Shown here one piece after another: positions 1,250 to 45,293 of a stretch of 45,293 bases of DNA (position 1 is the stretch's first letter; each line of letters begins with the position of its first letter). The notes under the pieces were generated by a model, which saw only the letters and a program-made list of their open reading frames with translations, was not told the origin of the DNA and searched no databases. This DNA is from a virus (taxonomy: Duplodnaviria > Heunggongvirae > Uroviricota > Caudoviricetes): the IMG/VR virus record IMGVR_UViG_2571042653_000011, one strand, 5' to 3'. A program made the position numbers and the translations under genes.

Positions 1250-1531
1250 TTAGTGATGTTCTTTGCCCTTCTGTTTGCCTGTTCTGACCTGTTCCCACTC
1301 GATACGTCCTTCTTCTCGTCTTTTGTCTATGTATTCCGCAAGATCCTGAATATTGATGCAACGTTTTGCTTTTTGTGATGTACCGATGCGATATGTAGGT
1401 ACAGGCAACTTACAAGCGTTTGCTTTTGCTTCTGCTGTGGCTGGACTCATACCAAAGTATTTTTGACTAACTGCTGAGAGTTCAATGTTTGGGGTATTGA
1501 ATTCAGCCATCAGTAAAAACAAGGTGTTCAT
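1250..1531 (-). CDS. Excisionase-like DNA-binding protein (DUF1233/PrtN-like, tentative)
   Basis: ORF 1250-1558; start assigned to the internal ATG (MNTLFLL...) which has GGAG 6 nt upstream; family resemblance is from memory. Confidence 0.5.
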   Translation of the reverse strand: MNTLFLLMAEFNTPNIELSAVSQKYFGMSPATAEAKANACKLPVPTYRIGTSQKAKRCINIQDLAEYIDKRREEGRIEWEQVRTGKQKGKEHH

Positions 1532-1567
1532 AATTTTCTCCATCAAAACCGGCTGCACCCGGGAAAA

Positions 1568-2140
1568 TCATAATTCTGTGCTGGTGGCAGGAATTAATTT
1601 CTGCCAGATAGCGGAAACATATTTTGCCTGATGACGGGCATCAGCCAGGGCGTTGTGCCGTTCGCCATCGAAAGGCATGTCCATTTTGGGGTCGAATCCG
1701 ATGGAACGCCCAAGCGTAACGATCGTGCGTACATCGTGGTCATTCCAGTACGCCCACGGGCAGATTTGTCCTGCTCGCTCGTAAGCTCCACGTAAAATTA
1801 CGTTGTCGAAGGTGGCCCCGTTACCCCAGACTTTTAAATATTTCGTATTGGCTGCGTGCCGGTTAATGAAATGATTTAGTTCTGAGAGAGCATCGCTGAT
1901 CGACAAAGTATCATCAATACAGATTGCAGCTCGTGCTTCAGGGCTTTGTTTCAACCACCACAGGATGGTATCGCCGTCAGGTGTAGCTCCTTGCCCCATA
2001 GCACTTTCCAGGCTAACAACCGTATAGAATTCTTGTCCGATGTCTCCGGTTTCTGGAGTGAAGAACACCGCGCCAATGGAAACGATCGGTGCATCCTTAT
2101 TTTTCCCCATCGTCTCAAGGTCGATCATTAAGTTGTTCAT
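1568..2140 (-). CDS. 3'-5' exonuclease (DnaQ-like DEDD family)
   Basis: DxE motif (MIDLETMG) near the N-terminus and a C-terminal H...D motif; strong SD (GGAGGTGA) before the ATG; start overlaps the upstream gene's stop. Confidence 0.75.
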   Translation of the reverse strand: MNNLMIDLETMGKNKDAPIVSIGAVFFTPETGDIGQEFYTVVSLESAMGQGATPDGDTILWWLKQSPEARAAICIDDTLSISDALSELNHFINRHAANTKYLKVWGNGATFDNVILRGAYERAGQICPWAYWNDHDVRTIVTLGRSIGFDPKMDMPFDGERHNALADARHQAKYVSAIWQKLIPATSTEL

Positions 2141-2898
2141 CACTTCACCTCCTGCGGCGGTTCCGGTAGCGGCATCCAGTGAGTTGCTTGCTCAATACCA
2201 TTACCCGGCTTAATCGTTGCATCTCCTCTCCGAAAGGTGCTTCCGGTATAGCGTGCGGAGCATATTAGCGGTTCAACCAGAGAGCTATCGAAATTCACCG
2301 AAATAAGCACGTTCTGGCCCTTTTCAGGCATTCGATCACTACAGCTTATCCAACCATCCGGAGTTACCGGATAGTTGCCAGCCAGTGCGTTCTGCAATCG
2401 TTCCAGCTTAACGTATTCCTGAACCCTGTTTCCGTCGCACGCCTGAAGCCATTGCACAGCCTTTTGCGCATCAGTGTGAAAGGTACAAGTGCGTCCATCC
2501 TCAAATTGCATTTCGTAAAGGTCAGCAACCTGTTCAAAGTGCGTTTGTGGCAAGTTGTAAGTTTGGTTTACAGGTTGGCCTCCCTGAAGCATGGCGGCGC
2601 GGTGACACCAGATAATCCAGCCAAGCGCCATATCCCATGCCATGTATTCTCTATCACCATTTTTTGCCCTGCGGCGATCTACAGATTCCCCGAAACGCTT
2701 CTCCATAAATAATTCATAGGCTGCCCGTTCATCCGATACTGCTGCCAGCGATGCCAGTGCAATTTTAAATGCGGTAAGTATGTTGTTAACCTGACCTATT
2801 TCGAATGCTATTTCACTACATACAAACGATTTATCGTCTATTATCGACTCAATTCCGGTAATCGTGTTCTGTAACCATTCTTTGGTAATAGTATTCAT
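2140..2898 (-). CDS. DUF551-domain phage protein
   Basis: 252 aa; C-terminal segment WISCSDRMPE...HWMPLPEPP resembles DUF551; SD AAGGTGA upstream of the ATG. Confidence 0.65.
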   Translation of the reverse strand: MNTITKEWLQNTITGIESIIDDKSFVCSEIAFEIGQVNNILTAFKIALASLAAVSDERAAYELFMEKRFGESVDRRRAKNGDREYMAWDMALGWIIWCHRAAMLQGGQPVNQTYNLPQTHFEQVADLYEMQFEDGRTCTFHTDAQKAVQWLQACDGNRVQEYVKLERLQNALAGNYPVTPDGWISCSDRMPEKGQNVLISVNFDSSLVEPLICSARYTGSTFRRGDATIKPGNGIEQATHWMPLPEPPQEVK

Positions 2899-2900
2899 AA

Positions 2901-3092
2901 CTATTTCACCTTAATCTCAACATTTCGCAGCTTTAGCTCTACTGGCAGGTCTGACTTTCCTGTTAATGCTAATGCGAGATTTTCAGGAGTAATGAGAGCA
3001 GTTATTGTTTTCCCCCTCGCCAGACGAATAATCATTCGTATCTCGCAATCGTCACATGCTCCCGGTCGAACAATTGAGATTTGTCCGTTCAT
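2901..3092 (-). CDS. Hypothetical small phage protein (63 aa)
   Basis: Tightly packed between the Ea22-like and DUF551 genes in the same leftward operon. Confidence 0.4.
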   Translation of the reverse strand: MNGQISIVRPGACDDCEIRMIIRLARGKTITALITPENLALALTGKSDLPVELKLRNVEIKVK

Positions 3093-3093
3093 C

Positions 3094-3648
3094 TCACTTC
3101 CCCTTCACACCAATGTTGGCGGCGGCGCGCTCGGCTTCACTTTGTTCCCAAAACCACTTGTGAAGCGCCATAAGCTTTTCGTCAATCGGTGCATATTTGC
3201 GATTAAAGTAGGCCTGAGCATCTTTCTCAGATTCGTCCGGTAATTCGCCAGGGCCAAACAGTGTGTTATAAATCCATGCCAGTCCGCTCTCAGCGTCGCC
3301 AGTTGCCTGCCATTCGATAATGGCAGCCTGCATGACCAGAATGTTTTTCCCGATTAATAGGTCCAGTTCTTTGTACCGGTTGCGGATGTATGCATTCTCG
3401 CTTTGTAATTCAGCGTTTCGCTTCTCTGCTGCTTCCAGCTCATCCAGCAGCGCCAAGACGGTGGCAGGATTGGCGGCGGCTATGAATCGTTTATTGGCGC
3501 GATTATCTGGTCCTGAGCATGATGCTATGTAGTAATTGGCGTTCAGTCCGGCATCGGCAATTACTACATGGTAGTCATCAGCACACCATTCGCCTGGTGT
3601 TGCATTTTCTGCCGCCAGTCGCAGAGCCTGATAGTTAATCTCGCTCAC
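3094..3648 (-). CDS. Ea22-like early protein
   Basis: 184 aa with central coiled-coil; GTG start preceded by consensus SD AAGGAGG at 6 nt; N-terminus MSEINYQALR resembles Ea22-like prophage proteins (recall). Confidence 0.55.
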   Translation of the reverse strand: MSEINYQALRLAAENATPGEWCADDYHVVIADAGLNANYYIASCSGPDNRANKRFIAAANPATVLALLDELEAAEKRNAELQSENAYIRNRYKELDLLIGKNILVMQAAIIEWQATGDAESGLAWIYNTLFGPGELPDESEKDAQAYFNRKYAPIDEKLMALHKWFWEQSEAERAAANIGVKGK

Positions 3649-3884
3649 TGGTTGCCTCCTTTACGGATCTGCGCTGCGATGCGCGAAAAAAAAGACTCCC
3701 GCGTATGACTGTTAAGAGCTGGCGCGAACGCTGCGTTAAGAACGGCAGCATCACAGCCGTCATCGATATAGAGCGCAATTTTTTTCTCCAGGCGCGCTTT
3801 GGCTTCCTGCAACTGCATACCCCGGCACGCACGCGGGATATACTCAGCAATTTGAGCGATAGATTTTTCGTTCTGTTTAAACAT
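3645..3884 (-). CDS. Hypothetical phage protein (79 aa)
   Basis: ATG with SD GAGGTGA; stop overlaps the downstream start. Confidence 0.45.
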   Translation of the reverse strand: MFKQNEKSIAQIAEYIPRACRGMQLQEAKARLEKKIALYIDDGCDAAVLNAAFAPALNSHTRESFFSRIAAQIRKGGNQ

Positions 3885-4080
3885 GCTTCACCTCGATAGG
3901 CTTGATGGTGTCGATCAGTAGTCGGAGGCGCGTATTTTCTGCAAAGTGGCGGCGTCCGGTTTCTTTGTGGTAAAACTCGTTTTTGCCGACGACCCACATC
4001 CGCTCTGTCTGGTGAAGTTTTTTTACCTGCGGGCCGTCTTTGGTGATCACAATGCCGGTATGGGTTTTTACGATTGTCAT
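3877..4080 (-). CDS. Hypothetical phage protein (67 aa)
   Basis: ATG overlaps the stop of the upstream PAPS-reductase-like gene (ATGA). Confidence 0.45.
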   Translation of the reverse strand: MTIVKTHTGIVITKDGPQVKKLHQTERMWVVGKNEFYHKETGRRHFAENTRLRLLIDTIKPIEVKHV

Positions 4081-4955
4081 GCCACCACCTCTTCGAATTT
4101 CAATTCCAATTGATCACCCCAGATTTCACATGACTCTGAACACGAGCCGGTATCGAATCGCCTGGCTTGCACCATCGCTTGATACAAATTTCTGTAGTCG
4201 CTGTCGGCATACATTCTGGCAATCCCGTCAAGGCTCAGATGACCACGGTACATAACGTCTTTATTTGTCTTTCGGTGACCATCCCGGACGTGTTTACCTG
4301 TAACCAGCTCATTAAAAACTCGCATCAGACCAGGTTCGTCTTTACATGCAAGCCCCAGCTTTTGCGTGGACTTTTTGATGCAGAAAACACAGTTCCCGAG
4401 GTGCTCCGGGATTTGCAAATCAAAAGGTTGTTTATGCCACCACCGGATAACATCCGAGTTATCAAAATCAGATAGCTCGGCAAGATACCGGACGCCCGAT
4501 TTCGGTTTCAGCCTACGAGGTTCGTCTGCACGAATACCCAGCCATGTGATGTAATTCCCTCGTCCGAAATGGTCATCGCAGTATTTTGTGAAGGGGGTGA
4601 GTTTTAATCTGTCAGTGCAGAACGCGCCGCCGATGTATGGCGTGCCATATTTTTTTACCATGTCCATAAACGGTTTAAGCACCGGCATTCGTGTCTGAAT
4701 ATCCTTTGGTTCCCATTCCGTATAACCATTTGGCTGCCCAAGCTCTGGATTTATATCGACCTGCAACACAGTTAGCGGTATGCCCCAGAACTTCACAACC
4801 TCCCGAATAAAGCGGTATGTCAGCGGATGTTCGCAACCGGTATCCATAAAGATGTAGCAGACGTTATTGCCAGCCTTTCTTTGTTCTTCCATCAGGTGAA
4901 CAAGATATGCAGATGTTCTCCCGCCAGAAAAACTAACTACATGAGTTATGCACAT
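4077..4955 (-). CDS. Phosphoadenosine phosphosulfate (PAPS) reductase family protein (PP-loop ATP pyrophosphatase fold)
   Basis: 292 aa; N-terminal PP-loop motif SFSGGRTS; overlaps the 3' end of the upstream HD-domain gene by 10 nt. Confidence 0.75.
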   Translation of the reverse strand: MCITHVVSFSGGRTSAYLVHLMEEQRKAGNNVCYIFMDTGCEHPLTYRFIREVVKFWGIPLTVLQVDINPELGQPNGYTEWEPKDIQTRMPVLKPFMDMVKKYGTPYIGGAFCTDRLKLTPFTKYCDDHFGRGNYITWLGIRADEPRRLKPKSGVRYLAELSDFDNSDVIRWWHKQPFDLQIPEHLGNCVFCIKKSTQKLGLACKDEPGLMRVFNELVTGKHVRDGHRKTNKDVMYRGHLSLDGIARMYADSDYRNLYQAMVQARRFDTGSCSESCEIWGDQLELKFEEVVA

Positions 4956-5482
4956 TTGCGTAATTCCGATAACTCGTTAAAACGTTCCATAAACATCCCG
5001 TAGGCATGGCCTGGTGACAGTGGAATAACTTTGAACATCTCTGTTGCCGGGATGCCTTCCAGTACAGGCCAGAAAGAGCCATCATCAAGCCCGAGATCGC
5101 GGCGTTCGGTTGCCAGCATAATGAGATCGGCATATTTCACTGGCGTGCTCATAACAGGAGGTAACCCGTATTTCTCACGGATTACGGCGTCTATTTTTTC
5201 TTCCATCCGTTTATAGTCAGGAAGAGGTCGTTTCAGTGGCGCGGGGATGTCCTGGCAATATGCTTCTGTTGCATCATGCATTAACGCTTCGAAAGCAAAC
5301 TCCTGCGGTACCAGCTGGCTGCAAAGCACCGCATGTTGGGCGACGCTGTAGAAGTGTGAAAGATGCCCTGCAAAGCGACAGATATTTGAGAGGGAAACTG
5401 CGATATCGTTAATCACGATGTCGTCTTTATTTATCTTGTCATAATAAAAATGCTTCCCGGAAAAAGTTTTAATAAATGACAT
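4946..5482 (-). CDS. yfdR: HD-domain phosphohydrolase, YfdR-like 5'-deoxynucleotidase
   Basis: 178 aa from the ATG at 5482 (GGAG 7 nt upstream); HD motif (ALMHDATE); length and P-Q-R gene order match the CPS-53 prophage yfdPQR set as recalled. Confidence 0.65.
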   Translation of the reverse strand: MSFIKTFSGKHFYYDKINKDDIVINDIAVSLSNICRFAGHLSHFYSVAQHAVLCSQLVPQEFAFEALMHDATEAYCQDIPAPLKRPLPDYKRMEEKIDAVIREKYGLPPVMSTPVKYADLIMLATERRDLGLDDGSFWPVLEGIPATEMFKVIPLSPGHAYGMFMERFNELSELRKCA

Positions 5483-5609
5483 TTTGTTCTCCACGTATAT
5501 GCGCTGCACCGCGCTGAATTCTGGTAAAAGGAAGCTCTCACCATCCGGTGATTATTGAGTTAATTACGTTTCCATAAATGCCCCCGCAGGGGCATTTGCA
5601 GTAATGAAA

Positions 5610-6434
5610 TCAGGCGGTGAAAGTACCAATAAAGGTTTCGACTTTGCTGTCTTTGAATTTCTCAACAAGCAGATCACGAAATTCGTTAGCCATTTCTTCC
5701 TGCACCGCTTCCAGCTGAATAATGCGCAGAACCAGTACAGGACGATCGCCAGTGATAATGCTGAGGCGTAATTTAAACGGACGTTCTTTCAGGCCTTCAA
5801 ACGGAACGCATTTAAATTCAAATGCCACTGGCATAATGTCTTTGGTCTTCGCTTCGACTGACTCCATCAGGGAGCGTTTGCCGCTGAAGTCATTATCTTC
5901 AAAATCAGCTGTCTGGTTCGCTTCAATTGTGATTTTACGGATCGCCGCAGCCGCTTTGGTTGCCTGAATGGCGTCACCATTAGCATCAAAGCCCACAAGG
6001 TAGTCGGCCCAGTCTTCAATCCATTCTGCCAGTGACTTCTGGGAGTTACGCTCGCCGTTAACAGACAACAGGGCAGAGAACGGTGCTGTCTTTTTCAGTT
6101 TGAGAGTGGCGGTGTTATCTGCGTGACCTGGTTCATCGATAGTACCCAGGTTAAGTACACTGACGGCACGCATATTATCGGCGTCGATAAAGCAGCGGGT
6201 GCCTTCATCTGCAAGATCTTTAGAATAACGGGTAAAATCATCGATGCTGGCAGTGGAAAGTGCACCACGGAAACGGAAGCGATTTAAATTAAATTTTTCC
6301 AGATCATGAATGCGGAAATTCTCAGGCAATGCCACAGCATCGGCACCAATCTTACTGATAATTTCATTAACACCCTGAGCAGAAATAAGGGCATGAATTT
6401 GATTAATTGCGGTTGCGTCTAAGTTCTGAGACAT
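5610..6434 (-). CDS. yfdQ: YfdQ-like protein (DUF2303)
   Basis: 274 aa, same length as E. coli CPS-53 YfdQ (recall); sits between the yfdP-like and yfdR-like genes. Confidence 0.6.
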
Positions 6435-6499
6435 AATAAGTCCTCACTATATAAAGATATTCAATGATGAGATAAATAATCAGTTAATTAAGAACGATA

Positions 6500-6862
6500 T
6501 TAATGACCTGCTGCGCGGAGTTTTCCGTCAGGCTCACCGGCAAGAGTCAGTAATTGTCCCTGGTCTTCCTGCAGAATAGTCAGGCGACCACCGCGATTGA
6601 CATACATCGGCGTTTCGGTGGTGTCTTCTTCGGAAATTTTCCCGCGGTTAGTCGGGCGAACATATGAGAGTTTGTGTTTTATTTTCACACGGTTCTCATC
6701 AAACGGTTCGATTTCCAGGTTGAGCGAGACCTTACCTTTGGTTTTCGTGTTCATCACACCGGAAGCGACTTCACTGAGAACTGCGCCGATTTTGGTTTCA
6801 AATACGCCGCCGTCCAGCTCCCCGATAAATGCCTGCACATCAGTACTGTGTTCGCTAGCCAT
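6500..6862 (-). CDS. yfdP: YfdP-like early protein; first gene of the leftward operon
   Basis: 120 aa from the ATG at 6862 (MASEHSTD...) with SD GAGGAG 7 nt upstream; the longer track ORF to 7048 has a TTG start, no SD, and would translate the structured leader. Confidence 0.5.
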   Translation of the reverse strand: MASEHSTDVQAFIGELDGGVFETKIGAVLSEVASGVMNTKTKGKVSLNLEIEPFDENRVKIKHKLSYVRPTNRGKISEEDTTETPMYVNRGGRLTILQEDQGQLLTLAGEPDGKLRAAGH

Positions 6863-6910
6863 TTTGCTGCTCCTCATCATATCGACCCTGCAAGGTCGGT
6901 TGGTTTCTCC

Positions 6911-7009
6911 ACAAAACAGAGAAGAACACCTGCGGTGACTGCCGCCCGGATGGATTGGGTTATGAGCCCGTCGTCCGGTGATGCTCTTCTCTGTTTTGTA
7001 AAAAGAGCG
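6911..7009 (-). promoter_or_regulatory. Structured leader of the leftward transcript: boxA-like element followed by a long hairpin (nut/put-like candidate)
   Basis: On the minus strand CGCTCTTTTTA (plus 6999-7009) is immediately followed by a 15-bp inverted repeat (arms 6911-6925 and 6985-6999) around a 59-nt GC-rich loop; lies between the PL candidate and the first gene. Confidence 0.3.
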
Positions 7010-7203
7010 GTACCAGCCGGAAGCAAGTGTACAAACTGGTACCGCCAAAGCAGTGGCTGTTGTGGTGACCGGTGCTGATCTCCGGCTTGCGGTTATTTCA
7101 GACTCTCACGGGCGTTTAATTGCCCCGCCGAACAGCTCTTTTCCGCAATAGCTGCAATGTCTTTCGCGCATCAGCCTGCGCATTCACCACAACTCTAAAA
7201 ACA

Positions 7204-7319: not shown

Positions 7320-7973
7320 TCAAAAATCCATTATTACTTGTTTGACAAGACCAACTATTCTGCAGTTCTCACCGCATTCAATAGTTTTATAGTTAGGATT
7401 TAGTGGGACGAGATACCTGTTCGGCCAGTCCTCAACAAATTTTTTGAGTGTCGCTTCTTGCCCACCATTGATATGGGCAACAACGATTTTTCCGTTAATA
7501 CACTCTGTATCAATAATATCTGGCTCTACGATAACGATAGAACCTTCTGGTATCGATGGTGAGCCGAGGGGATTGGTCATTGAATCACCACGGACCCGTA
7601 GTGCAAATGCCATTTCTGATACAAGGGCGGTAGTATAAACCCACTCTTCAGCATCTTCTTTCCTGACACCAGGCTCCGTCATTGTCCATGAACCCGCCTG
7701 AACCCACGAGATGAGGGGGACTTTTTTAACTGCGAATATTTCAGGTTTTAGATTTATCTTTGGTTCAGGCGAGCCTTTTCCGCTAACAAGCCACAGAGGA
7801 TCGCATTTAAGTGCGTTGGCTAGGGCTTGAAGGTTGGCTCCATTTGGTTGGTAGTCGTCCTTTTCCCATCCAGTAACCGTGACACGGTTCACACCAGTCA
7901 AATCAGCCAGTGCTTGTTGTGTCAGGTTCAGTTCTTTTCGCCTTTGGCGAATACGATCACTCATGTTCATCAT
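7320..7973 (-). CDS. CI-like prophage repressor (HTH_XRE N-terminal domain plus S24 LexA-like peptidase domain)
   Basis: N-terminal HTH (RIRQRRKELNLTQQALADLTGV) and C-terminal S24 motifs (GDSM ... KK); start is ambiguous among ATGs at 7973, 7970 and 7964 because operators overlap the 5' end. Confidence 0.85.
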   Translation of the reverse strand: MMNMSDRIRQRRKELNLTQQALADLTGVNRVTVTGWEKDDYQPNGANLQALANALKCDPLWLVSGKGSPEPKINLKPEIFAVKKVPLISWVQAGSWTMTEPGVRKEDAEEWVYTTALVSEMAFALRVRGDSMTNPLGSPSIPEGSIVIVEPDIIDTECINGKIVVAHINGGQEATLKKFVEDWPNRYLVPLNPNYKTIECGENCRIVGLVKQVIMDF

Positions 7974-8037
7974 GTAGGCAATCCTACCACATGCCAATGT
8001 AGGATTCTTGACATTGGCATGTTGGATATCCTACATT
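7972..8037 (+). promoter_or_regulatory. Right operator/promoter region (OR/PR candidate, with PRM presumably interleaved)
   Basis: TTGACA (8008-8013), 18-bp spacer, TACATT (8032-8037) upstream of the cro-like ATG at 8069; operator copies at 7972-7992 and 8019-8036 (the latter is the exact reverse complement of the OL 18-mer); 10-bp inverted arms at 7991-8000 and 8011-8020. Confidence 0.55.
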
Positions 8038-8068
8038 CCTGCTTGACGTAATTTAACGGGAGACAGAA

Positions 8069-8266
8069 ATGCGGAAATCCGACGTGATTAATTATTTCGG
8101 CGGAGTTTGTAAAACCGCCGAAGCCCTAGGTATTAAGCATCCGTCTGTTTCAGAGTGGCCTGAGATTATTCCTGAAGGCCGAGCGTACCAGTTAGAAAAA
8201 ATTACTAACGGGAAACTGAAAGTTGACGTGTCTTTATATCAAAAGACTAACAGTGCTGCGGCATAA
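8069..8266 (+). CDS. Cro-like small HTH regulator
   Basis: 65 aa, divergent from the cI-like gene; GGGAG SD before the ATG; HTH-like segment GGVCKTAEALGIKHPSVSEW. Confidence 0.6.
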   Translation: MRKSDVINYFGGVCKTAEALGIKHPSVSEWPEIIPEGRAYQLEKITNGKLKVDVSLYQKTNSAAA

Positions 8267-8293
8267 AAACACCACAGAAATGAGGAATTAACC

Positions 8294-8878
8294 GTGGGTA
8301 AAGAACCTGAATGGAAAGTTGATAAACAACCAGCATGGCTGGTGGCAGCAATACGAAGAACGATTGCTGATTTACCTCATGGCTATGAGGAAGCAGCAGA
8401 AATTCTTGGTTTGTATAAATCTGATGATATCACCCCAGCAAAAGATCAATTGCATAACAGACTGCGTAGCGGTGGGGATCAAATTTTTCCACTTGAGTGG
8501 GCCATGGTTTTACAGGATGCCAGTGGTACCAGGCATGTAACAGATGCAATAGCCCGTCGTAGTAATGGGGTGTTTGTGCCGCTGGTGGTCATTGATGACA
8601 TTGACAATGGTGACATTAATCAGCGGCTGATGGAGTCAATAGAATGGATTGGCAAGCATTCCCAGTACTTACGCAAGGCAACTGCTGATGGAGTTATTGA
8701 CCAGGCTGAGCGTGAGCAAATCGAAGAGAACAGCTACCAAGTAATGGCGAAGTGGCAGGAGCATTTAACACTGTTATTTCGTGTTTTTTGTGCGCCGGAA
8801 AAGAGTAACGCCCGCGAGTGTGCAGCTCCGGGCGTCGTGGCGTCGATTGCTTCTGGTTGTGGAGAAACTAACGCATGA
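8294..8878 (+). CDS. CII-like regulatory protein (CP76/YmfL-like, tentative)
   Basis: 194 aa, GTG start with SD TGAGGA; position directly after cro; family assignment is from memory. Confidence 0.4.
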
Positions 8879-9213
8879 ACAGTTTAACAACACACTACCG
8901 TCGCTCGCAACTGATTGCGCTTCCTGTACCGGGTGGAAAAGCGAAGGTGGAGTATTGCTATGCAGTGAATGTACCAGGTGACAGGGAAATTGTAACCCAC
9001 AGCTTTGCAGAGTGGGCTGTGGGTGATTTCAACCGGCAGAAGGAGACAGTCCTTTGCGACAAGTTAACCGCTGGTTCAAAGATCACTACGGAGTGCCCGT
9101 CAGAGTCATTCGTTGGGAGCCGGAAACACAACGGGTTATCTACCTCCGTGAAGGCTATGAACATGAATGCTTCAGTCCGCTCGAACAGTTTCGTCGTAAA
9201 TTCAGGGAAATAG
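8875..9213 (+). CDS. Hypothetical early protein (YmfM-like position)
   Basis: 112 aa; ATG overlaps the upstream stop; C-terminal half is Ser/Thr-rich and overlaps an alternative-frame ORF at 9054-9266. Confidence 0.35.
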
Positions 9214-9222
9214 AGGTCGGTC

Positions 9223-10215
9223 ATGAGCCTGTTAATGACATCCCAGCCCATTGTGATAAATCGTGATCTTGCATGCCGTATTGGTCTGAATGAGGCAATT
9301 GTGTTGCAGCAGCTTCATTACTGGCTGAATGAAACGAATTCAGGCACTGAGCATGGCGGAATTCGCTGGGTTTATAACACGACAGAACAGTGGCTGGAGC
9401 AGTTTCCGTTCTGGTCAGAGTCCACTCTGAAACGCACATTTGCAAGCCTGAAATCACTTGGGGTTTTGCGACGCGAGCAACTCAATAAATCGAAGCGTGA
9501 CATGACCAACTTCTACACGATCAACTATGAAAGTGAGCTTTTAGAAGAGGTCAAAGTGAACGAATCCATCAGGTCAAAATGCACTTCTCCATCGGGTCAA
9601 AGTGACCTGATGGATGGGCGCAAAATGACACGATCCATTGGTTCAAAACGACACGCTGTCATCGGGTCAAAATGGCCCAATGATCTTACAGAGAATACAA
9701 CAGAGATTACTACAGAGAATAAAACCTCTTCTCGTCCGGACGCTTCGCAACCGGACACGCAAACGGCTGAACAGGAGTTTTTAACTCGCCATCCTGATGC
9801 GGTTGTATTCAGCCCTAAAAAGCGCCAGTGGGGAACGCAGGATGATTTGACCTGCGCACAGTGGCTCTGGAAAAAAATCATCGCCCTGTACGAGCAGGCC
9901 GCCGAATGTGACGGCGAGGTGGTTCGTCCCAAAGAACCGAACTGGACAGCATGGGCAAACGAAATTCGCCTGATGTGTGTGCAGGATGGTCGTACTCACA
10001 AACAAATCTGCGAGATGTACAGCCGCGTCAGCCGCGATCCGTTCTGGTGCCGTAACGTGCTCAGCCCGTCGAAGTTGCGGGAAAAATGGGATGAGCTTTC
10101 CCTGCGCTTATCGCCGTCCGTCAGCACGCACACAGAAAAACGTGAAGACCCGTACTTCAAAGCCAGTTACGACAACGTGGACTACAGCCAGATCCCGGCA
10201 GGATTCAGGGGGTGA
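9223..10215 (+). CDS. Replication initiation protein (O-like position; N-terminal HTH)
   Basis: 330 aa; N-terminal HTH-like segment (LACRIGLNEAIVLQQLHYW ... LKSLGVLRR); internal iteron array; SD AGAGGT before the ATG. Confidence 0.6.
   Translation: MSLLMTSQPIVINRDLACRIGLNEAIVLQQLHYWLNETNSGTEHGGIRWVYNTTEQWLEQFPFWSESTLKRTFASLKSLGVLRREQLNKSKRDMTNFYTINYESELLEEVKVNESIRSKCTSPSGQSDLMDGRKMTRSIGSKRHAVIGSKWPNDLTENTTEITTENKTSSRPDASQPDTQTAEQEFLTRHPDAVVFSPKKRQWGTQDDLTCAQWLWKKIIALYEQAAECDGEVVRPKEPNWTAWANEIRLMCVQDGRTHKQICEMYSRVSRDPFWCRNVLSPSKLREKWDELSLRLSPSVSTHTEKREDPYFKASYDNVDYSQIPAGFRG
9549..9674. repeat. Iteron array (candidate replication origin) inside the replication gene
   Basis: Direct repeats of the form CATCGGGTCAAARTG at 9567-9581, 9590-9604, 9636-9650 and 9660-9674, with degenerate copies near 9549 and 9613; spacing about 23 bp; followed by an A/T-rich stretch at 9680-9725. 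Confidence 0.55.
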
Positions 10216-10217
10216 TC

Positions 10218-10310
10218 ATGAGTCTGTTAAATGACGTTCAGAAATTCATTGAAGCCCATCCGGGCTGTACTTCCGGAGACATTGCGGATGCTTTTTACGT
10301 GGGGGCTTAA
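10218..10310 (+). CDS. Very small ORF (30 aa) bridging the replication gene and the methyltransferase
   Basis: ATG with SD AGGGGG; its stop overlaps the methyltransferase ATG; could be only a coupling spacer. Confidence 0.2.
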   Translation: MSLLNDVQKFIEAHPGCTSGDIADAFYVGA

Positions 10311-10963
10311 TGAGTAATAAATATTGCCAGGCGCTGGTAGAACTGCGGAACAAACCAGCCCATGAACTGAAGGAAGTGGGCGATCAGTGGCGCACGCCGG
10401 ACAACATTTTCTGGGGAATTAACACCTTGTTTGGTCCGTTTGTTCTGGATCTGTTCACTGACGGTGATAACGCCAAATGTGCCGCGTATTACACGGCGGA
10501 AGACAACGCGCTGGCGCATGACTGGTCAGAACGTCTTGCGGAGCTTAAAGGTGCTGCCTTTGGTAATCCCCCATACAGCCGCGCCAGTCAGCATGAGGGG
10601 CAATACATCACCGGCATGCGTTACATCATGAAACATGCCAGTGCCATGCGTGATAAGGGCGGGCGCTATGTTTTCCTGATCAAAGCTGCCACCAGCGAAG
10701 TGTGGTGGCCGGAAGATGCGGACCATATTGCTTTTATTCGCGGGCGTATTGGTTTTGAACTGCCTGCCTGGTTTATCCCGAAGGATGAGAAGCAGGTGCC
10801 GACAGGCGCTTTCTTCGCTGGTGCTATTGCTGTTTTCGACAAGACCTGGAAGGGACCGGCAATCAGCTACATCGGGCGCGATGAACTTGAGGCATGTGGT
10901 GAGGCGTTTCTGGCGCAGGTTCGCCAGCAGGCAGAAAAACTTGTCAGGGAGATGGCGGCATGA
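10310..10963 (+). CDS. Phage N6-adenine DNA methyltransferase (Dam-like, orphan)
   Basis: 217 aa with catalytic NPPY motif (FGNPPY); no adjacent restriction endonuclease. Confidence 0.8.
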   Translation: MSNKYCQALVELRNKPAHELKEVGDQWRTPDNIFWGINTLFGPFVLDLFTDGDNAKCAAYYTAEDNALAHDWSERLAELKGAAFGNPPYSRASQHEGQYITGMRYIMKHASAMRDKGGRYVFLIKAATSEVWWPEDADHIAFIRGRIGFELPAWFIPKDEKQVPTGAFFAGAIAVFDKTWKGPAISYIGRDELEACGEAFLAQVRQQAEKLVREMAA

Positions 10964-11286
10964 CGACGTTAACTCAATGCCAGCAGCAGGTGCTGGATAT
11001 GCTGATTTCTTACCAGCAAGAGCGTGGCTTTCCGCCAACCAATCAGGAGGTGGCAACCATGCTGGGATACCGTTCGGTGAATGCAGCGGTGGAGCATCTT
11101 CGCGCACTGGAGAAAAAAGGCGTCATCACGATAAAGCGTGGCGTGGCCCGGGGGATAACGCTTCATACCGCAGTGAAGGACGACGACAGCGAAGCGGTCG
11201 GTATCATCCGCGCACTGCTTGCCGGTGAGGAGAACGCCAGGCTGCGTGCAGCCCACTGGTTACATGAGAGGGGCCTGAAAGTATGA
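10960..11286 (+). CDS. LexA N-terminal-domain-like winged-helix DNA-binding protein (no peptidase domain)
   Basis: 108 aa; N-terminus resembles the LexA DNA-binding domain (LTQCQQQVLDMLISYQQERGFPPTNQEVATMLGYRS); start overlaps the upstream stop. Confidence 0.5.
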   Translation: MTTLTQCQQQVLDMLISYQQERGFPPTNQEVATMLGYRSVNAAVEHLRALEKKGVITIKRGVARGITLHTAVKDDDSEAVGIIRALLAGEENARLRAAHWLHERGLKV

Positions 11287-11672
11287 AGTTGATCCTGCCT
11301 TTCCCGCCCAGTGTGAACACGTACTGGCGACACCCCAACAAAGGGGCATTTGCTGGTAAGAGCCTGATAAGCGAGGCGGGGCGAAAATTTCAGAGCGCGG
11401 CGTGCGCAGCAATAGTTGAGCAGTTACGTCGTCTGCCGAAACCAACGTCGGCACCTGCTTCAGTGGAGATCGTGTTGTTTCCTCCGGATAACCGGATCCG
11501 CGATCTGGACAACTATAACAAGGCGCTGTTTGACGCCCTGACCCACGCGGGTGTGTGGGAAGACGACAGACAGGTGAAAAGAATGCTGGTGGAGTGGGGA
11601 CCGGTTATCCCGAAAGGGAAGGTCGAGATCACTATCAGTAAGTATGAGAAACCGGCGGGTGCAGCCGCCTGA
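11283..11672 (+). CDS. rusA: Holliday junction resolvase RusA
   Basis: 129 aa; characteristic RusA motifs (DLDNYNKALFDALT, VWEDDRQV). Confidence 0.85.
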   Translation: MKLILPFPPSVNTYWRHPNKGAFAGKSLISEAGRKFQSAACAAIVEQLRRLPKPTSAPASVEIVLFPPDNRIRDLDNYNKALFDALTHAGVWEDDRQVKRMLVEWGPVIPKGKVEITISKYEKPAGAAA

Positions 11673-11691
11673 TTAAGAGGAGAAACGAAGT

Positions 11692-12501
11692 ATGAATAAT
11701 CTGATGGTCATTGATGGTATTGAAGTTCGTCGTGATGCTTATGGGCGTTACAGCCTGAACGATCTGCATCGCGCAGCAGTAGCATCTGGTGCAAATGCCA
11801 GAACCAAGGAGCCAGGAAAGTTTCTTTCCAGCCAACAAACTGTTGAGCTTGTTCATGAATTGACCAACACCCAGAATTTGGGTGTTGACCCGGTGAGTGT
11901 GATTCATGGGGGAAATGAACGGGGAACGTATGTCTGCAAGGAACTGGTGTATGCCTATGCAATGTGGATCAGCCCGTCATTCCATCTGAAGGTGATCCGT
12001 ACTTTCGACATGGTAACCAGCGCACCGGAAAAATTATCCGGACAGGCTGCTGACAAGATGCAGGCTGGTGTGATTCTGCTGGACTTTATGCGCCGGGAAT
12101 TAAACCTGTCTAACTCTTCAGTGCTTGGTGCCTGTCAGAAACTCCAGGAGGCTGTTGGCTTACCGAATCTGGCACCGCGCTATGCCATTGATGCTCCTGC
12201 TGACGCGCCTGATGGCTCAAGTCGTCCTACGCTGTCGCTGAGTGCACTGCTGAAACAGTATGGTATCCGCCTTACGGCTAATCAGGCATATCACCAGATG
12301 GCGAAGCTGGGGATCGTTGAACAACGCGAACGATACAGCCGTACCGCGATTAACAACATCAAAAAATTCTGGTCGCTGACAGCGAAAGGTTGCATGTTCG
12401 GCAAGAACATCACCAGTCCCGCAAATGCGCGCGAGACGCAGCCGCATTTCTTCGAATCCCGATTCCCTGAGCTGTTAAAGCTGCTCGATACCGTTCATTG
12501 A
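11692..12501 (+). CDS. KilA-N domain protein (antirepressor-like)
   Basis: 269 aa; N-terminal KilA-N-like region; strong SD AGAGGAGA. Confidence 0.6.
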   Translation: MNNLMVIDGIEVRRDAYGRYSLNDLHRAAVASGANARTKEPGKFLSSQQTVELVHELTNTQNLGVDPVSVIHGGNERGTYVCKELVYAYAMWISPSFHLKVIRTFDMVTSAPEKLSGQAADKMQAGVILLDFMRRELNLSNSSVLGACQKLQEAVGLPNLAPRYAIDAPADAPDGSSRPTLSLSALLKQYGIRLTANQAYHQMAKLGIVEQRERYSRTAINNIKKFWSLTAKGCMFGKNITSPANARETQPHFFESRFPELLKLLDTVH

Positions 12502-15036: not shown

Positions 15037-16089
15037 ATGAAAAATACTGTAAAAATAAACAGTGTTGATTTAATCAACGCTGATTGCCTGCATTTTATTC
15101 AGTCCCTGCCTGATGATTCCATTGACCTGATTGTTACCGATCCGCCGTACTTCAAGGTGAAACCCAACGGCTGGGACAATCAGTGGAAAGGGGACGAAGA
15201 TTACCTTAAGTGGCTGGACCACTGTCTGGCCCAGTTCTGGCGGGTGTTAAAACCTGCCGGAAGCCTTTACCTGTTCTGTGGGCATCGCCTGGCATCTGAT
15301 ATTGAGATCATGATGCGTGAACGTTTCAACGTGCTTAACCATATCATCTGGGCGAAGCCGTCCGGACGTTGGAATGGGTGTAATAAAGAAAGTCTGCGCG
15401 CATATTTTCCTGCCACAGAGCGCGTTCTGTTTGCTGAACATTACCAGGGGCCATATCGCGGCAAAAGTGACGGCTATGCGGCAAAAGAAAGGGAACTCAA
15501 ACAGCACATAATGGCACCGCTGATATCGTATTTCAGGGATGCTCGTGCCGAACTGGGTATAACGGCAAAACAAATTGCCGAAGCCACAGGTAAGAAAAAT
15601 ATGGTTTCCCACTGGTTTGGTGCCAGTCAGTGGCAGTTGCCGAATGAGGCTGACTATCGGAAGTTACAGGCACTGTTTTCCCGTATAGCGGCAGAGAAGT
15701 TTCAGGAACAACAACTGGAACAACCACACCACCAGCTGGTGGCATCTTATGATTCACTGAATCGCAAATATTCTGAATTGCTGGATGAGTTTAAATCTCT
15801 CCGGCGCTATTTCTCCGTATCAGTCTCCGTGCCTTATACCGATGTCTGGATGCATAAACCCGTTCAGTTCTACCCGGGTAAACATCCGTGTGAGAAACCG
15901 GCGGATATGCTCAGGCAAATAATCAATGCCAGTAGTCGACCTGGTGATCTGGTTGCTGATTTTTTTATGGGATCCGGTTCCACAATAAAAGCAGCAATGG
16001 CGCTGGGGCGTCGGGCCTTAGGTGTTGAGCTTGAGTCAGAGCGGTTTAACCAGACAGTGAAAGAGATAAACGAGCTGGTGGGGAAATAA
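15037..16089 (+). CDS. DNA methyltransferase, beta class (N6-adenine or N4-cytosine), orphan, in the late region
   Basis: 350 aa; DPPY motif (IVTDPPYF) near the N-terminus and SAM-binding FxGxG (FFMGSGST) near the C-terminus; no cognate nuclease nearby. Confidence 0.8.
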
Positions 16090-42693: not shown

Positions 42694-43791
42694 TCAAGAG
42701 GTCTTATTTCTGCTCCTTTGGAGTTCTTCAAAACGATTATGTAAAGATTTTGGATACAGTTCGGTATATACCTGCCATAGCACGTTTAATGAACGATGCC
42801 CTGTAACCTGGGCGACTTCCTCAATACTAAAACCAGCCTCAAATAAGCGACTTGCCCCTTCTCTACGCAAATCATGGTATCGCAGATCTTTAATACCTAA
42901 TTTGCTTCTTACCCTCTGAAATCCTGCGGTAACAGAAGTGCTGTTGTATGGAAAAATGAATTCAGATTTTTTGGGTTGTCGTTGGACGATATCCCAGGCT
43001 TCCCCAAGCAAGGCCACTTTCATATGGTTACCTTCCTTTTTACGTGGATCTTTCCTGTCTCTTACTAGTATAGATTTTTGTTCCTGGTCGAGATCTTCCC
43101 ATCGTAACCGGCATACTTCTCCGATTCGCATACAGGACCACACAGAAAATTTGAGGATATCAACGAACGGAATTTTTGAGCATTTATGAGTAGATCGTTG
43201 TTGAAGGCCTTCAATGAGCATGTCTAGTTCATCAGATGCTGGTCTACGATTACGACGATTTGATTTACCAATTAAACCAAGTTTAAGTAGATATGGACGA
43301 GCGGCTTTTGCTGGGTTTGATGTGTAATTAATTCCGTATACAGGTTTGGCTGCATCCAGAACACTGCCAAGATAACTAACATCGTGGCTAACAGTAGCTG
43401 GACCTGCACCGGCGTTGTTTCTCAACCTGCAATGTTCTATTACGTCATTTTCTGTTAATTCAGATAGTCTGATCGCAGAAATGTCACTATCCATAAGTAG
43501 TTCCAGCACATATCTTTTAGTACGGCCTGCTTTACCTCCGGCATTTGGGTCATTTAAATATTTGCGTAGTAAGTCACGGACTGTAAGCCCGTCAACAGCA
43601 TTTGATGATGGAATGCCATGTAGATCTAATTCCATCACTTTCTGTGTGCCCCATGTTTTGGCATGAGCATGTTTAGGGAATGTTTTGCTTTCCCTGTAAG
43701 TGATAACCCCTTTTTCTTTGATAATCACATTACAGCGATAGCGTGGTGTGCCATCGGATTTTAGTCGTTTCTCTATGTTATAGTACGCCAT
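42694..43791 (-). CDS. Tyrosine-type integrase (dusA-associated)
   Basis: 365 aa; C-terminal catalytic region with R...H.LR...Y pattern (HDLRREGASR ... LWQVY); adjacent and divergent to dusA. Confidence 0.9.
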   Translation of the reverse strand: MAYYNIEKRLKSDGTPRYRCNVIIKEKGVITYRESKTFPKHAHAKTWGTQKVMELDLHGIPSSNAVDGLTVRDLLRKYLNDPNAGGKAGRTKRYVLELLMDSDISAIRLSELTENDVIEHCRLRNNAGAGPATVSHDVSYLGSVLDAAKPVYGINYTSNPAKAARPYLLKLGLIGKSNRRNRRPASDELDMLIEGLQQRSTHKCSKIPFVDILKFSVWSCMRIGEVCRLRWEDLDQEQKSILVRDRKDPRKKEGNHMKVALLGEAWDIVQRQPKKSEFIFPYNSTSVTAGFQRVRSKLGIKDLRYHDLRREGASRLFEAGFSIEEVAQVTGHRSLNVLWQVYTELYPKSLHNRFEELQRSRNKTS

Positions 43792-43879: not shown

Positions 43880-44917
43880 ATGCACGATAATCATGAAACA
43901 CAAAAAATTAATCAAACCAGCGTGATGCCTGAAAAAAATGGTGTTTACTGGAATTCTCGGTTTAGCATTGCTCCTATGCTCGACTGGACGGACAGACATT
44001 GCCGCTATTTCTTGCGTCTGCTTTCCCGCAATACGTTGCTGTATACCGAAATGGTGACCACAGGGGCGATTATTCACGGTAAAGGTGATTATCTGGCGTA
44101 CAGTGAAGAAGAACATCCGGTAGCATTGCAACTGGGCGGTAGCGATCCGGCGGCGCTGGCGCAGTGTGCAAAGCTGGCAGAAGCGCGCGGATATGATGAG
44201 ATCAACCTGAATGTCGGCTGCCCGTCTGACCGGGTGCAGAACGGCATGTTTGGGGCGTGTCTGATGGGTAATGCGCAGCTGGTTGCCGACTGCGTGAAAG
44301 CGATGCGCGATGTGGTGTCGATTCCGGTGACGGTGAAAACGCGTATTGGCATCGACGACCAGGACAGCTATGAATTTCTCTGCGATTTCATCAACACCGT
44401 TTCCGGCAAAGGCGAGTGTGAGATGTTCATCATCCATGCTCGTAAAGCCTGGCTTTCGGGGTTAAGCCCGAAAGAAAACCGTGAAATCCCGCCGCTCGAT
44501 TATCCGCGTGTGTATCAACTGAAGCGTGACTTTCCGCATCTGACAATGTCGATTAACGGTGGTATCAAGTCGCTGGAAGAGGCTAAAGCGCATTTGCAAC
44601 ATATGGATGGCGTGATGGTCGGGCGCGAAGCGTATCAAAATCCGGGTATTCTGGCGGCGGTAGACCGAGAGATCTTTGGTTCCTCGGATACCGATGCCGA
44701 TCCGGTGGCGGTAGTGCGCGCCATGTATCCGTACATTGAGCGTGAACTCAGCCAGGGGACGTATCTTGGCCATATTACCCGGCATATGTTGGGCTTGTTC
44801 CAGGGTATTCCTGGCGCGCGGCAGTGGCGGCGTTATTTAAGTGAAAATGCCCATAAAGCGGGTGCAGACATTAATGTGCTGGAACACGCGCTCAAACTGG
44901 TGGCGGATAAGCGTTAA
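43880..44917 (+). CDS. dusA: tRNA-dihydrouridine synthase A
   Basis: 345 aa; flavin-dependent Dus TIM-barrel features with catalytic Cys (NLNVGCPS); the first ~30 codons are likely supplied by the prophage end. Confidence 0.9.
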
Positions 44918-44999
44918 CTTTTCACCAAAAAGTAGTCAAATTCACCACGCCCTGCGCACCGTCGCGGGGCGTTTTGCTGTTAAATCAATAGATTATTTT

Positions 45000-45014
45000 T
45001 GGCATGATTCTTGT
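45000..45014 (+). promoter_or_regulatory. Sigma-54-type promoter candidate upstream of pspG
   Basis: TGGCAT-N5-TTGT resembles the -24/-12 consensus TGGCAC-N5-TTGC, about 37 nt upstream of the pspG ATG; the -12 element is imperfect. Confidence 0.35.
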
Positions 45015-45050
45015 AATGCCTGCAAGAGATTTCATATTTGGGAGAGCATC

Positions 45051-45293
45051 ATGCTGGAACTACTTTTTGTGATTGGCTTTTTTGTCATGCTGATGGTCAC
45101 CGGCGTTTCGTTGCTGGGCATTATCGCCGCGCTGGTTGTGGCGACGGCCATTATGTTCCTCGGCGGTATGCTGGCATTGATGATTAAGTTGCTGCCGTGG
45201 TTACTACTGGCGGTTGCGGTGGTGTGGGTTATTAAGGCGATTAAAGCACCAAAAGTGCCGAAATATCAGCGTTATGACCGCTGGCGTTACTAA
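45051..45293 (+). CDS. pspG: Phage shock protein G
   Basis: 80-aa small membrane protein (MLELLFVIGFFVMLMV ... KYQRYDRWRY), recognised from memory; ends at the window edge with a stop codon. Confidence 0.85.
   Translation: MLELLFVIGFFVMLMVTGVSLLGIIAALVVATAIMFLGGMLALMIKLLPWLLLAVAVVWVIKAIKAPKVPKYQRYDRWRY

Follow-up and report, generated by a model that had tools for sequence, protein, structure and literature searches.

A lambda O-like initiator with internal iterons and a DnaT-type terminal peptide in a lambdoid phage without a recognisable helicase loader gene

The initiator gene and the origin within it

The 45,293-nt viral DNA IMGVR_UViG_2571042653_000011, which we call the window (the whole stretch analysed), has the gene content of a lambdoid phage genome or prophage. 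In its rightward early operon lies an intact replication initiator gene whose 330-amino acid (aa) product matches PHROG 391, labelled "replication initiation O-like", at 1e-101 (Table 1) and matches no Pfam family (E up to 0.1) and no NCBIfam family. Three features of this gene concern us here: a putative origin inside the coding sequence, the apparent lack of a helicase loader gene in the element, and a terminal peptide closely resembling that of Escherichia coli DnaT. Host dependence is set at the step where a phage origin acquires the host helicase, and exclusion systems target this step; lambda uses its P protein for it and P22 has its own helicase.

A preliminary description of the window had reported iterons and an A/T-rich stretch inside the O-like gene, as in the lambda origin, and this arrangement was confirmed as six 23-bp iterons followed by a stretch of 69% A+T. 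The iterons have the core GGTCAAAATG (best-kept 15-mer CATCrGGTCAAArTG) and the array was also detected by TRF (period 23, 5.4 copies, score 84). With up to one mismatch allowed, GGTCAAAATG has four matches in the whole 45-kb window, all of them in the array, on one strand and at spacings of 23, 23 and 70 bp; about 4.4 matches would be expected, scattered on both strands of 45 kb. The third unit is a near-perfect palindrome, and positions 9564–9576 pair perfectly with positions 9603–9615. The array covers codons 108–154, which encode a disordered interdomain linker, and a close homologue (P0013) lacks 31 residues exactly at this iteron-bearing linker, as is expected if the number of iterons varies. 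The A+T-rich segment contains three 12-bp repeats at 9688–9725 (TRF score 55) and, from its position beside the iterons as in the lambda origin, is presumed to be the DNA-unwinding element. A search near the origin found no DnaA box in or close to it. Internal arrays of at least four copies, located at codons ~100–175 and spaced by 12, 15 or 21–24 bp, occur in 51 of 73 full-length relatives, while shuffled genes used as a control gave at most three copies; the placement of the origin within the gene is thus a family trait.

The protein has four parts: an N-terminal domain, the linker that bears the iterons, a C-terminal domain, and a variable linker with the terminal peptide. Residues 2–170 match phage initiator and DnaD-like PHROG families, and when the family profile was compared with the PDB the N-terminal part weakly matched MarR-type winged-helix proteins and the DnaD N-domain. 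The DnaD-like labels come from phrog_6493 over the winged-helix region and, more weakly, from phrog_2514 over later parts; they read "DnaD-like helicase loader" and do not denote an ATPase. There is no Pfam match to Phage_rep_O (PF04492) at E up to 0.1 and no BLAST similarity to the N-terminus of lambda O, and PF04492 is found in just 12 of the 86 proteins that have the same C-terminal domain. Relatives carry HTH_36, DnaD_N, Phage_rep_O or DUF1376 at the N-terminal position. Among them the iteron sequence varies together with the N-terminal domain, and we infer that this domain binds the iterons.

The C-terminal domain is of the lambda O type (BLASTP against lambda O, 1e-26 and 33% identity over residues 147–294; phmmer of lambda O against the window, 2.6e-23) and belongs to a family of which we collected 2684 representatives. 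Its fold is predicted with confidence by AlphaFold (predicted local distance difference test score, pLDDT, above 90 for residues 205–295). No solved structure matched this domain significantly, and a PDB search with the single initiator sequence found nothing. The initiator has no similarity to P22 gp18.

The preliminary description had also found no P, DnaC-like or helicase gene downstream of the initiator gene, where it saw a 30-aa open reading frame (ORF) and a Dam-like methyltransferase gene, and our searches agree on each count. Pfam and PHROG scans of the early-region ORFs returned no lambda P, DnaC/IstB, DnaB or other loader, and a six-frame phmmer search of the whole window against lambda P, E. 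coli DnaC, DnaB and DnaT, and P22 gp12 gave nothing at E<1. A loader domain was looked for in the O-like protein and in every adjacent ORF, and no DnaC/IstB-type AAA+ or lambda P domain was found in any of them. The only ORF of at least 100 aa in the window with a Walker-A motif is the terminase. The small downstream ORF (30 aa if counted from the ATG at 10218) is a remnant of a PerC-like gene: its full-length homologue matches Pfam PerC and, compared with the 163-aa PerC-like gene of phage mEp460 (L001, positions 7948–8436), it has a clean in-frame internal deletion of 396 bp that leaves the first 26 and the last 6 codons. Neither this ORF nor orf112, just upstream of the initiator gene, matches an NCBIfam family.

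The same absence is seen in related elements. The complete 42.9-kb genome of mEp460 contains no loader or helicase and no P-loop protein but the terminase, and 80 near-identical viral loci (E. coli prophages with 5-kb flanks), which serve only to confirm the absence, likewise have no loader. Since no loader is present in the window, which runs from the integrase through the tail genes, or in the complete mEp460 genome, the earlier suggestion that a loader lies outside the expected position is unsupported. It is likely that the phage encodes no loader and depends on that of its host. That the element is instead replication-defective, or dependent on a helper phage for a loader, we regard as highly improbable. 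The 396-bp deletion in the neighbouring PerC-like gene does amount to some decay, but the initiator gene and its iterons are intact, the initiator protein cluster has more than 200 identical members, and the initiator module is ~98% identical in the deposited genomes of phages mEp460, SfII, SfIV and cdtI, which we take to be infectious.

Table 1. Features of the initiator locus and its surroundings (positions are those of the window)
Feature	Position	Strand	Remarks
Leftward early genes	1250-7048
cI-type repressor	7320-7997	-
cro	8069-8266		Rightward early operon
cII-like gene	8294-8878		Rightward early operon
orf112 (ymfM-like)	8875..9213	+	Directly 5' of initiator gene; PHROG 1170, no function label
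Replication initiator gene	9223..10215	+	330 aa plus stop; 3' of cro, cII-like gene and orf112
N-terminal winged-helix domain (~aa 1-105)	9223..9537	+	Putative iteron-binding part
Six 23-bp iterons, head to tail	9544..9682	+	Starts at 9544, 9567, 9590, 9613, 9636, 9660
A+T-rich segment (48 bp)	9683..9730	+	69% A+T against 50% for the gene; directly 3' of iterons
Lambda O-type C-terminal domain (~aa 195-297), all-helical	9805..10113	+	BLASTP to lambda O
Variable linker between C-terminal domain and terminal peptide	10114..10185	+	Predicted disordered, pLDDT ~50
C-terminal peptide SQIPAGFRG, DnaT-type tail	10186..10212	+	8/9 residues as in the E. coli DnaT end
AGGGGG, last two tail codons (Arg-Gly)	10207..10212	+	Shine-Dalgarno of next ORF; ATG at 10218, 5 nt on
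32-aa ORF, PerC-like remnant, not a loader	10212..10310	+	PHROG 1324, 23071
Dam-family DNA adenine methyltransferase	10310..10963	+	PF05869, 1e-45; outside replication module
LexA-DNA-binding-like gene, RusA, KilA-N gene, DUF968/HNH gene, Q			Past the Dam gene
Lysis, terminase, head and tail genes			Past Q
Integrase	42694-43791	-

The terminal peptide and its partner genes

The preliminary description had supposed that the C-terminal domain may recruit the host helicase directly. This proved too simple: the folded domain is of the ordinary lambda O type, 63–74% identical to that of initiators that use P, and the part that differs is a short peptide at the very end of the protein. The last nine residues, SQIPAGFRG, are identical at eight positions to the end of E. 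coli DnaT, SQIPPGFRG. Among 107 DnaT sequences, nearly all of which keep the tail, the prevailing end is IP[PR]GFRG, a few having another middle residue, two extra residues (GFRGAK) or one substitution (GLRG). When the profiles of the O-type domain and DnaT families were compared, the tail alone aligned (13 columns, E 2.9e-4) and the folded domains did not; the resemblance to DnaT therefore consists of a common short peptide and not of common domains. The initiator does not match the DnaT domain (PF17948, the single-stranded DNA-binding C-terminal domain). In close homologues the linker before the tail varies in length and sequence while I-P-x-G-F-R-G is kept, a pattern typical of short linear motifs.

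A longer form of the motif is found elsewhere. YdaU of the Rac prophage ends in VNTVSLPDSAIPPGFRG and DnaT in VNTVSEPDSQIPPGFRG, and a motif of 17–20 residues, RD(V/I)NxISxPDxx(I/V)PxGFRG, is common to DnaT, YdaU, the O protein of Gifsy-2 and others. One family representative (P0188) carries the motif twice, with SIPKGFRG followed after 23 residues by the C-terminal EIPHGFRG. The peptides that follow the O-type domain in the family representatives fall into several kinds, namely IPxGFRG, NTDW(A/I)xG(L/V) as in lambda O, HWNSxEAWExx(L/I), AWxGIWQQAAEQ and others. Among the papers covered by a literature search, the string PGFRG occurs in unrelated collagen and peptide papers and in none on replication.

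The kind of tail predicts the partner gene. In 80 dereplicated loci from a one-genome-per-species collection we located the initiator, read its tail and searched the flanks. A lambda P homologue lies downstream in all 11 loci with an NTDW tail and in all 28 with a WNSxEAW tail, and in none of the 19 with a GFRG-type tail; three of these 19 have a DnaC homologue and the other 16 have no loader within 5 kb. In a neighbour-joining tree built from the domain core without the tail, GFRG and P-type tails are interleaved (L090/L107, L101/L099-100, L091/L092-097 and L098-102/L095-108), and the tail has switched at least five times independently on the C-terminal domain tree, the partner fitting each time. 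The exchange is apparent in two loci in particular. L097, from Trabulsiella, has the N-terminal domain of the window, the same GGTCAAAATG iteron and the 23-bp period, yet its tail is WNSPEAWENTL and P lies downstream. L089, from Citrobacter, differs from the window in its N-terminal domain and in its iterons; its C-terminal domain is 90% identical, its tail is GFRG and it lacks a loader. A single initiator type occurs in both settings, accompanied by dnaC in L318 and lacking it in L103-L105. We also observed that L103, L105 and L143 are enterobacterial prophage contigs filed under metagenome-assembled genomes named Bacillota bacterium and Veillonella parvula, probably through binning contamination.

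The converse association was read from phage dnaC genes with a readable upstream gene. In a first set, 79 of 79 loci have an ORF just upstream ending in (I/V)PxGFRG, and 26 of these upstream proteins lack the O-type domain. In a second set, built on Rac YdaV, the upstream protein carries GFRG in 77 of 77 loci, in one of them with three residues after it, so that the total is 156 of 156, Rac ydaU–ydaV included. A YdaV-based scan was itself nearly clonal. The sets cover three phage DnaC clades that are 54–76% identical to each other and 48–50% identical to host DnaC, and initiators of at least two architectures. The GFRG tail is also present in Gifsy-2 and in a Klebsiella phage, whose DnaC proteins are 48–49% identical, an Aeromonas phage (DnaC 51%) has the degenerate end PPGFN, and four phages with distant DnaC-like loaders (32–35% identical) have other endings. 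Two of these four, Hafnia phage yong1 (L332) and phage mEpX1 (L333), have the common tail DYGQTxxPxWA, which suggests that further tail–loader pairs exist.

A second loader-less class was seen in L116-L139 and L164 (Proteus, Providencia, Morganella, Edwardsiella and Sodalis), where 19 O-type initiators have a longer C-terminal extension ending in approximately AWxGIWQQAAEQAA and no P, DnaC or DnaB homologue lies within ~5 kb.

These loci also bear on the idea that the phage has a loader of a kind not yet recognised, encoded by one of its ORFs of unassigned function (orf112, or the leftward DUF2303 or PHROG 204 genes). No function is assigned to several early ORFs, phage loaders without homology to known ones continue to be discovered (PMC11087808), and orf112 homologues are present in 7 of the 19 GFRG loci against 2 of the 61 others, lying just upstream of the initiator gene in six of the seven and ~1 kb upstream in the last. 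However, orf112 is absent from 12 of the 19 GFRG loci and present in a locus with P, the second of the two other loci having an AWxxIW tail. The gene that follows the initiator in the sampled loader-less GFRG loci differs by lineage (PerC-like, MT-A70, Dam, ParB-like, DUF977 or DUF1627), and no conserved extra gene accompanies GFRG initiators. We therefore think a hidden phage loader improbable. As such a loader orf112 itself is unsupported by co-occurrence, and it is at best a weak candidate for an accessory factor.

Proposed recruitment of the host helicase

The co-occurrence of genes leads us to lean, by a modest degree, towards an initiator-only lambdoid module in which the DnaT-type tail recruits the host DnaB–DnaC complex. 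The initiator would be made from the rightward early operon, its winged-helix domain would bind the six iterons in its own coding sequence, and the complex so formed would open the adjacent A+T-rich segment. Neither helicase nor loader is supplied by the phage, as their absence shows. The IPAGFRG end, which follows the helical O-type domain and a disordered linker and ends the protein as DnaT and YdaU end, would serve as a docking tag for a DnaC-type loader, by which the origin complex could capture host DnaB–DnaC; related initiators with NTDW or WNSxEAW ends would take DnaB through phage P instead. Since the phage has no loader and the tail is found beside DnaC-type loaders in other phages, host DnaC is probably still needed. 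The broader notion, that the terminal peptide (RD[VI]NxISxPDxx)[IV]PxGFRG is a portable docking tag for DnaC-type loaders, we put forward more tentatively, as a possibility somewhat short of even.

Several observations weigh against the recruitment of DnaB–DnaC by the tail. The link to DnaC comes from gene neighbourhood alone, and the sampled loci are almost all from Enterobacterales. In the window the tail is without the RD(V/I)NxISxPD stretch that precedes it in the longer motif of DnaT and YdaU, and tails are looser in loader-less loci (GFRS, GWKGA, GFRV, GFRCD) than beside dnaC. A 2026 cryo-electron microscopy study of the PriA–PriB–DnaT preprimosome favours the N-terminal domain of DnaT as the recruiter of DnaB/DnaC and does not discuss the tail (PMC13377028). 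Moreover, TTC AGG GGG plus the stop codon is near-invariant in DNA across tails, with arginine encoded by the rare AGG or by AGA and never by CGN, and at phage initiator–dnaC junctions, at E. coli dnaT–dnaC and in the window the last codons double as the ribosome-binding site for the gene that follows. Because the tail codons adjoin the loader start, a single block of DNA carries both, and they are inherited and recombine together. Given the shared ribosome-binding site and this adjacency, some of the conservation and some of the association is to be expected even with no protein contact.

From the same facts it could be argued that the GFRG end is a relic of a lost downstream dnaC, kept as a coupling or ribosome-binding junction, and that the helicase is brought otherwise, by the folded O-type domain or the N-terminal domain touching DnaB directly, or through host DnaA in the manner of iteron plasmids such as pSC101, RK2 or P1. 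In addition to the near-invariant last codons with their rare AGG-GGG and the Shine-Dalgarno sequence 5 nt before the next ATG, and to the looser tails of loader-less loci, the nearest sister of the window on the domain tree (L094) has dnaC. In contrast, the tail shows synonymous variation in its Ile/Val, Pro and Gly codons with the residues unchanged, it persists where the next gene begins 22–41 nt away (loader-less L103-105 and L112), one of the two copies in P0188 is internal, and the motif common to DnaT and YdaU, at 17–20 residues, is far longer than a ribosome-binding site; together these oppose an explanation purely at the DNA level. The tail also persists in loader-less lineages whose C-terminal domains are only 55–60% identical and whose linkers cannot be aligned, and the lack of a DnaA box in or near the origin speaks against the DnaA route. 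We consider a relic unlikely, though the least unlikely of the alternatives to recruitment by the tail. At the E. coli dnaT–dnaC junction we observed the sequence GGATTCAGAGGGTAACGATGAAAAAC (L002, 3976–3981), almost identical to that at phage initiator–dnaC junctions (L222, L225 and others) although the DnaC proteins are only ~48% identical; this fits descent of the gene pair from one ancestor, together with strong coupling of translation.

The resemblance to DnaT could also point to a different partner, the tail mimicking DnaT to engage the PriA–PriB restart machinery rather than DnaC, with the opened origin being fed into the host restart primosome. DnaT, a component of the preprimosome, is the only cellular protein with the tail. 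In phages, however, the tail is always beside dnaC and never beside priA- or priB-like genes, and the profile comparison aligns the tail alone, while the contacts of DnaT to PriA and PriB seen by cryo-electron microscopy are made through its folded C-terminal domain and linker, which the initiator lacks (PMC13377028). This route has, in our judgement, little probability.

The preprimosome study states that how DnaT recruits DnaB/DnaC in replication restart is unknown (PMC13377028), and our observations bear on that question in that DnaT carries the same tail and adjoins dnaC. If the tag idea is true, the near-invariant tail of E. coli DnaT would be the long-sought element that recruits DnaB–DnaC to the restart primosome, and the dnaT–dnaC operon would descend from a phage initiator–loader gene pair. 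O-type initiators would carry exchangeable tags that set the loader pathway (GFRG for DnaC, NTDW or WNSxEAW for P, and others), and the loader usage of thousands of them could be read from their last few residues.

Related systems and genomic setting

The module is a variant of the lambda O/ori design without P and with a DnaT-type terminal peptide, and it is already present in sequenced phages, so that the sequence is not new. As in lambda, the origin is in the initiator gene, with iterons and then an A+T-rich stretch in the codons of the interdomain linker, the C-terminal domain is homologous, and the gene has the same place in the rightward early operon. Unlike lambda O, the initiator has an N-terminal domain that is not Pfam Phage_rep_O and six 23-bp iterons against the four annotated for lambda, it is not accompanied by P, and it ends in IPAGFRG where lambda O has NTDWIYGVDL. 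Initiators of iteron plasmids (pSC101 RepA, RK2 TrfA, P1 RepA) likewise bind, as a single protein, iterons beside an A+T-rich region and use host DnaB and DnaC; their origins, in contrast, are outside the rep gene and usually have DnaA boxes, which the origin in the window does not. Loader-less lambdoid modules may already be named in the 2006 review of phage replication modules by Weigel and Seitz, and a literature search for "initiator-solo" found no paper.

In the Rac pair YdaU–YdaV and phage pairs such as that of Gifsy-2, the same DnaT-type peptide stands at the end of the protein in the initiator position. These pairs differ from the window in having their own dnaC homologue directly downstream, and YdaU differs further in its DUF1376 architecture without an O-type domain. 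E. coli DnaT has the end residues already described and its gene is directly 5' of dnaC, as in the phage initiator–dnaC pairs, but DnaT lacks iterons and a winged-helix domain for origin binding. DopC of Cellvibrionales combines an O-like N-terminus with a folded DnaT C-terminal domain and is encoded beside a P-like loader gene (Brezellec et al., 2017; PMC5509034). It is a published example of an O-like N-terminus combined with a DnaT-related C-terminus and encoded beside a loader, but it has the folded DnaT C-terminal domain, no iterons and a P-like loader beside it, whereas the protein of the window has an O-type fold and only a DnaT-like peptide; the terminal peptide is not mentioned in the DopC paper (PMC5509034).

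The module, with neither P nor a helicase of its own, is widespread, being found in mEp460, the Shigella serotype-converting phages SfII and SfIV, cdtI and several Shiga toxin (Stx) phages. Positions 8000–11700 of the window are 96.5–98.3% identical, over varying length, to mEp460, SKA5, SfII, SfIV, cdtI and several Stx phages. In phage records the initiator is labelled "replication protein O", "primosomal protein" or "Primosomal protein I", the last being the name given by RAST to that of mEp460.

A 24-nt stretch, AGrGGnnGnTCATGAGyCTGTTAA, occurs with 79% identity at the start of the initiator gene (window 9212–9235) and again at that of the PerC-like remnant (10207–10230), and both proteins start with MSLL; this stretch may be a recombination joint between modules. 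The window begins exactly at an ATG and finishes exactly at a stop codon (ends 1–989 and 44841–45293), and the space from the integrase end to the leftward early genes holds a SocA/Panacea antitoxin-like gene (1–573) and ORFs of no assigned function, as though the window were an entire phage genome in circularly permuted form with a toxin–antitoxin-like or defence moron. Finally, the window encodes two DNA methyltransferases, the Dam-family enzyme in the nin region and an N6_N4_Mtase just 5' of the lysis genes (15037–16089), and the annotation of mEp460 also lists two DNA adenine methyltransferases in the corresponding places.

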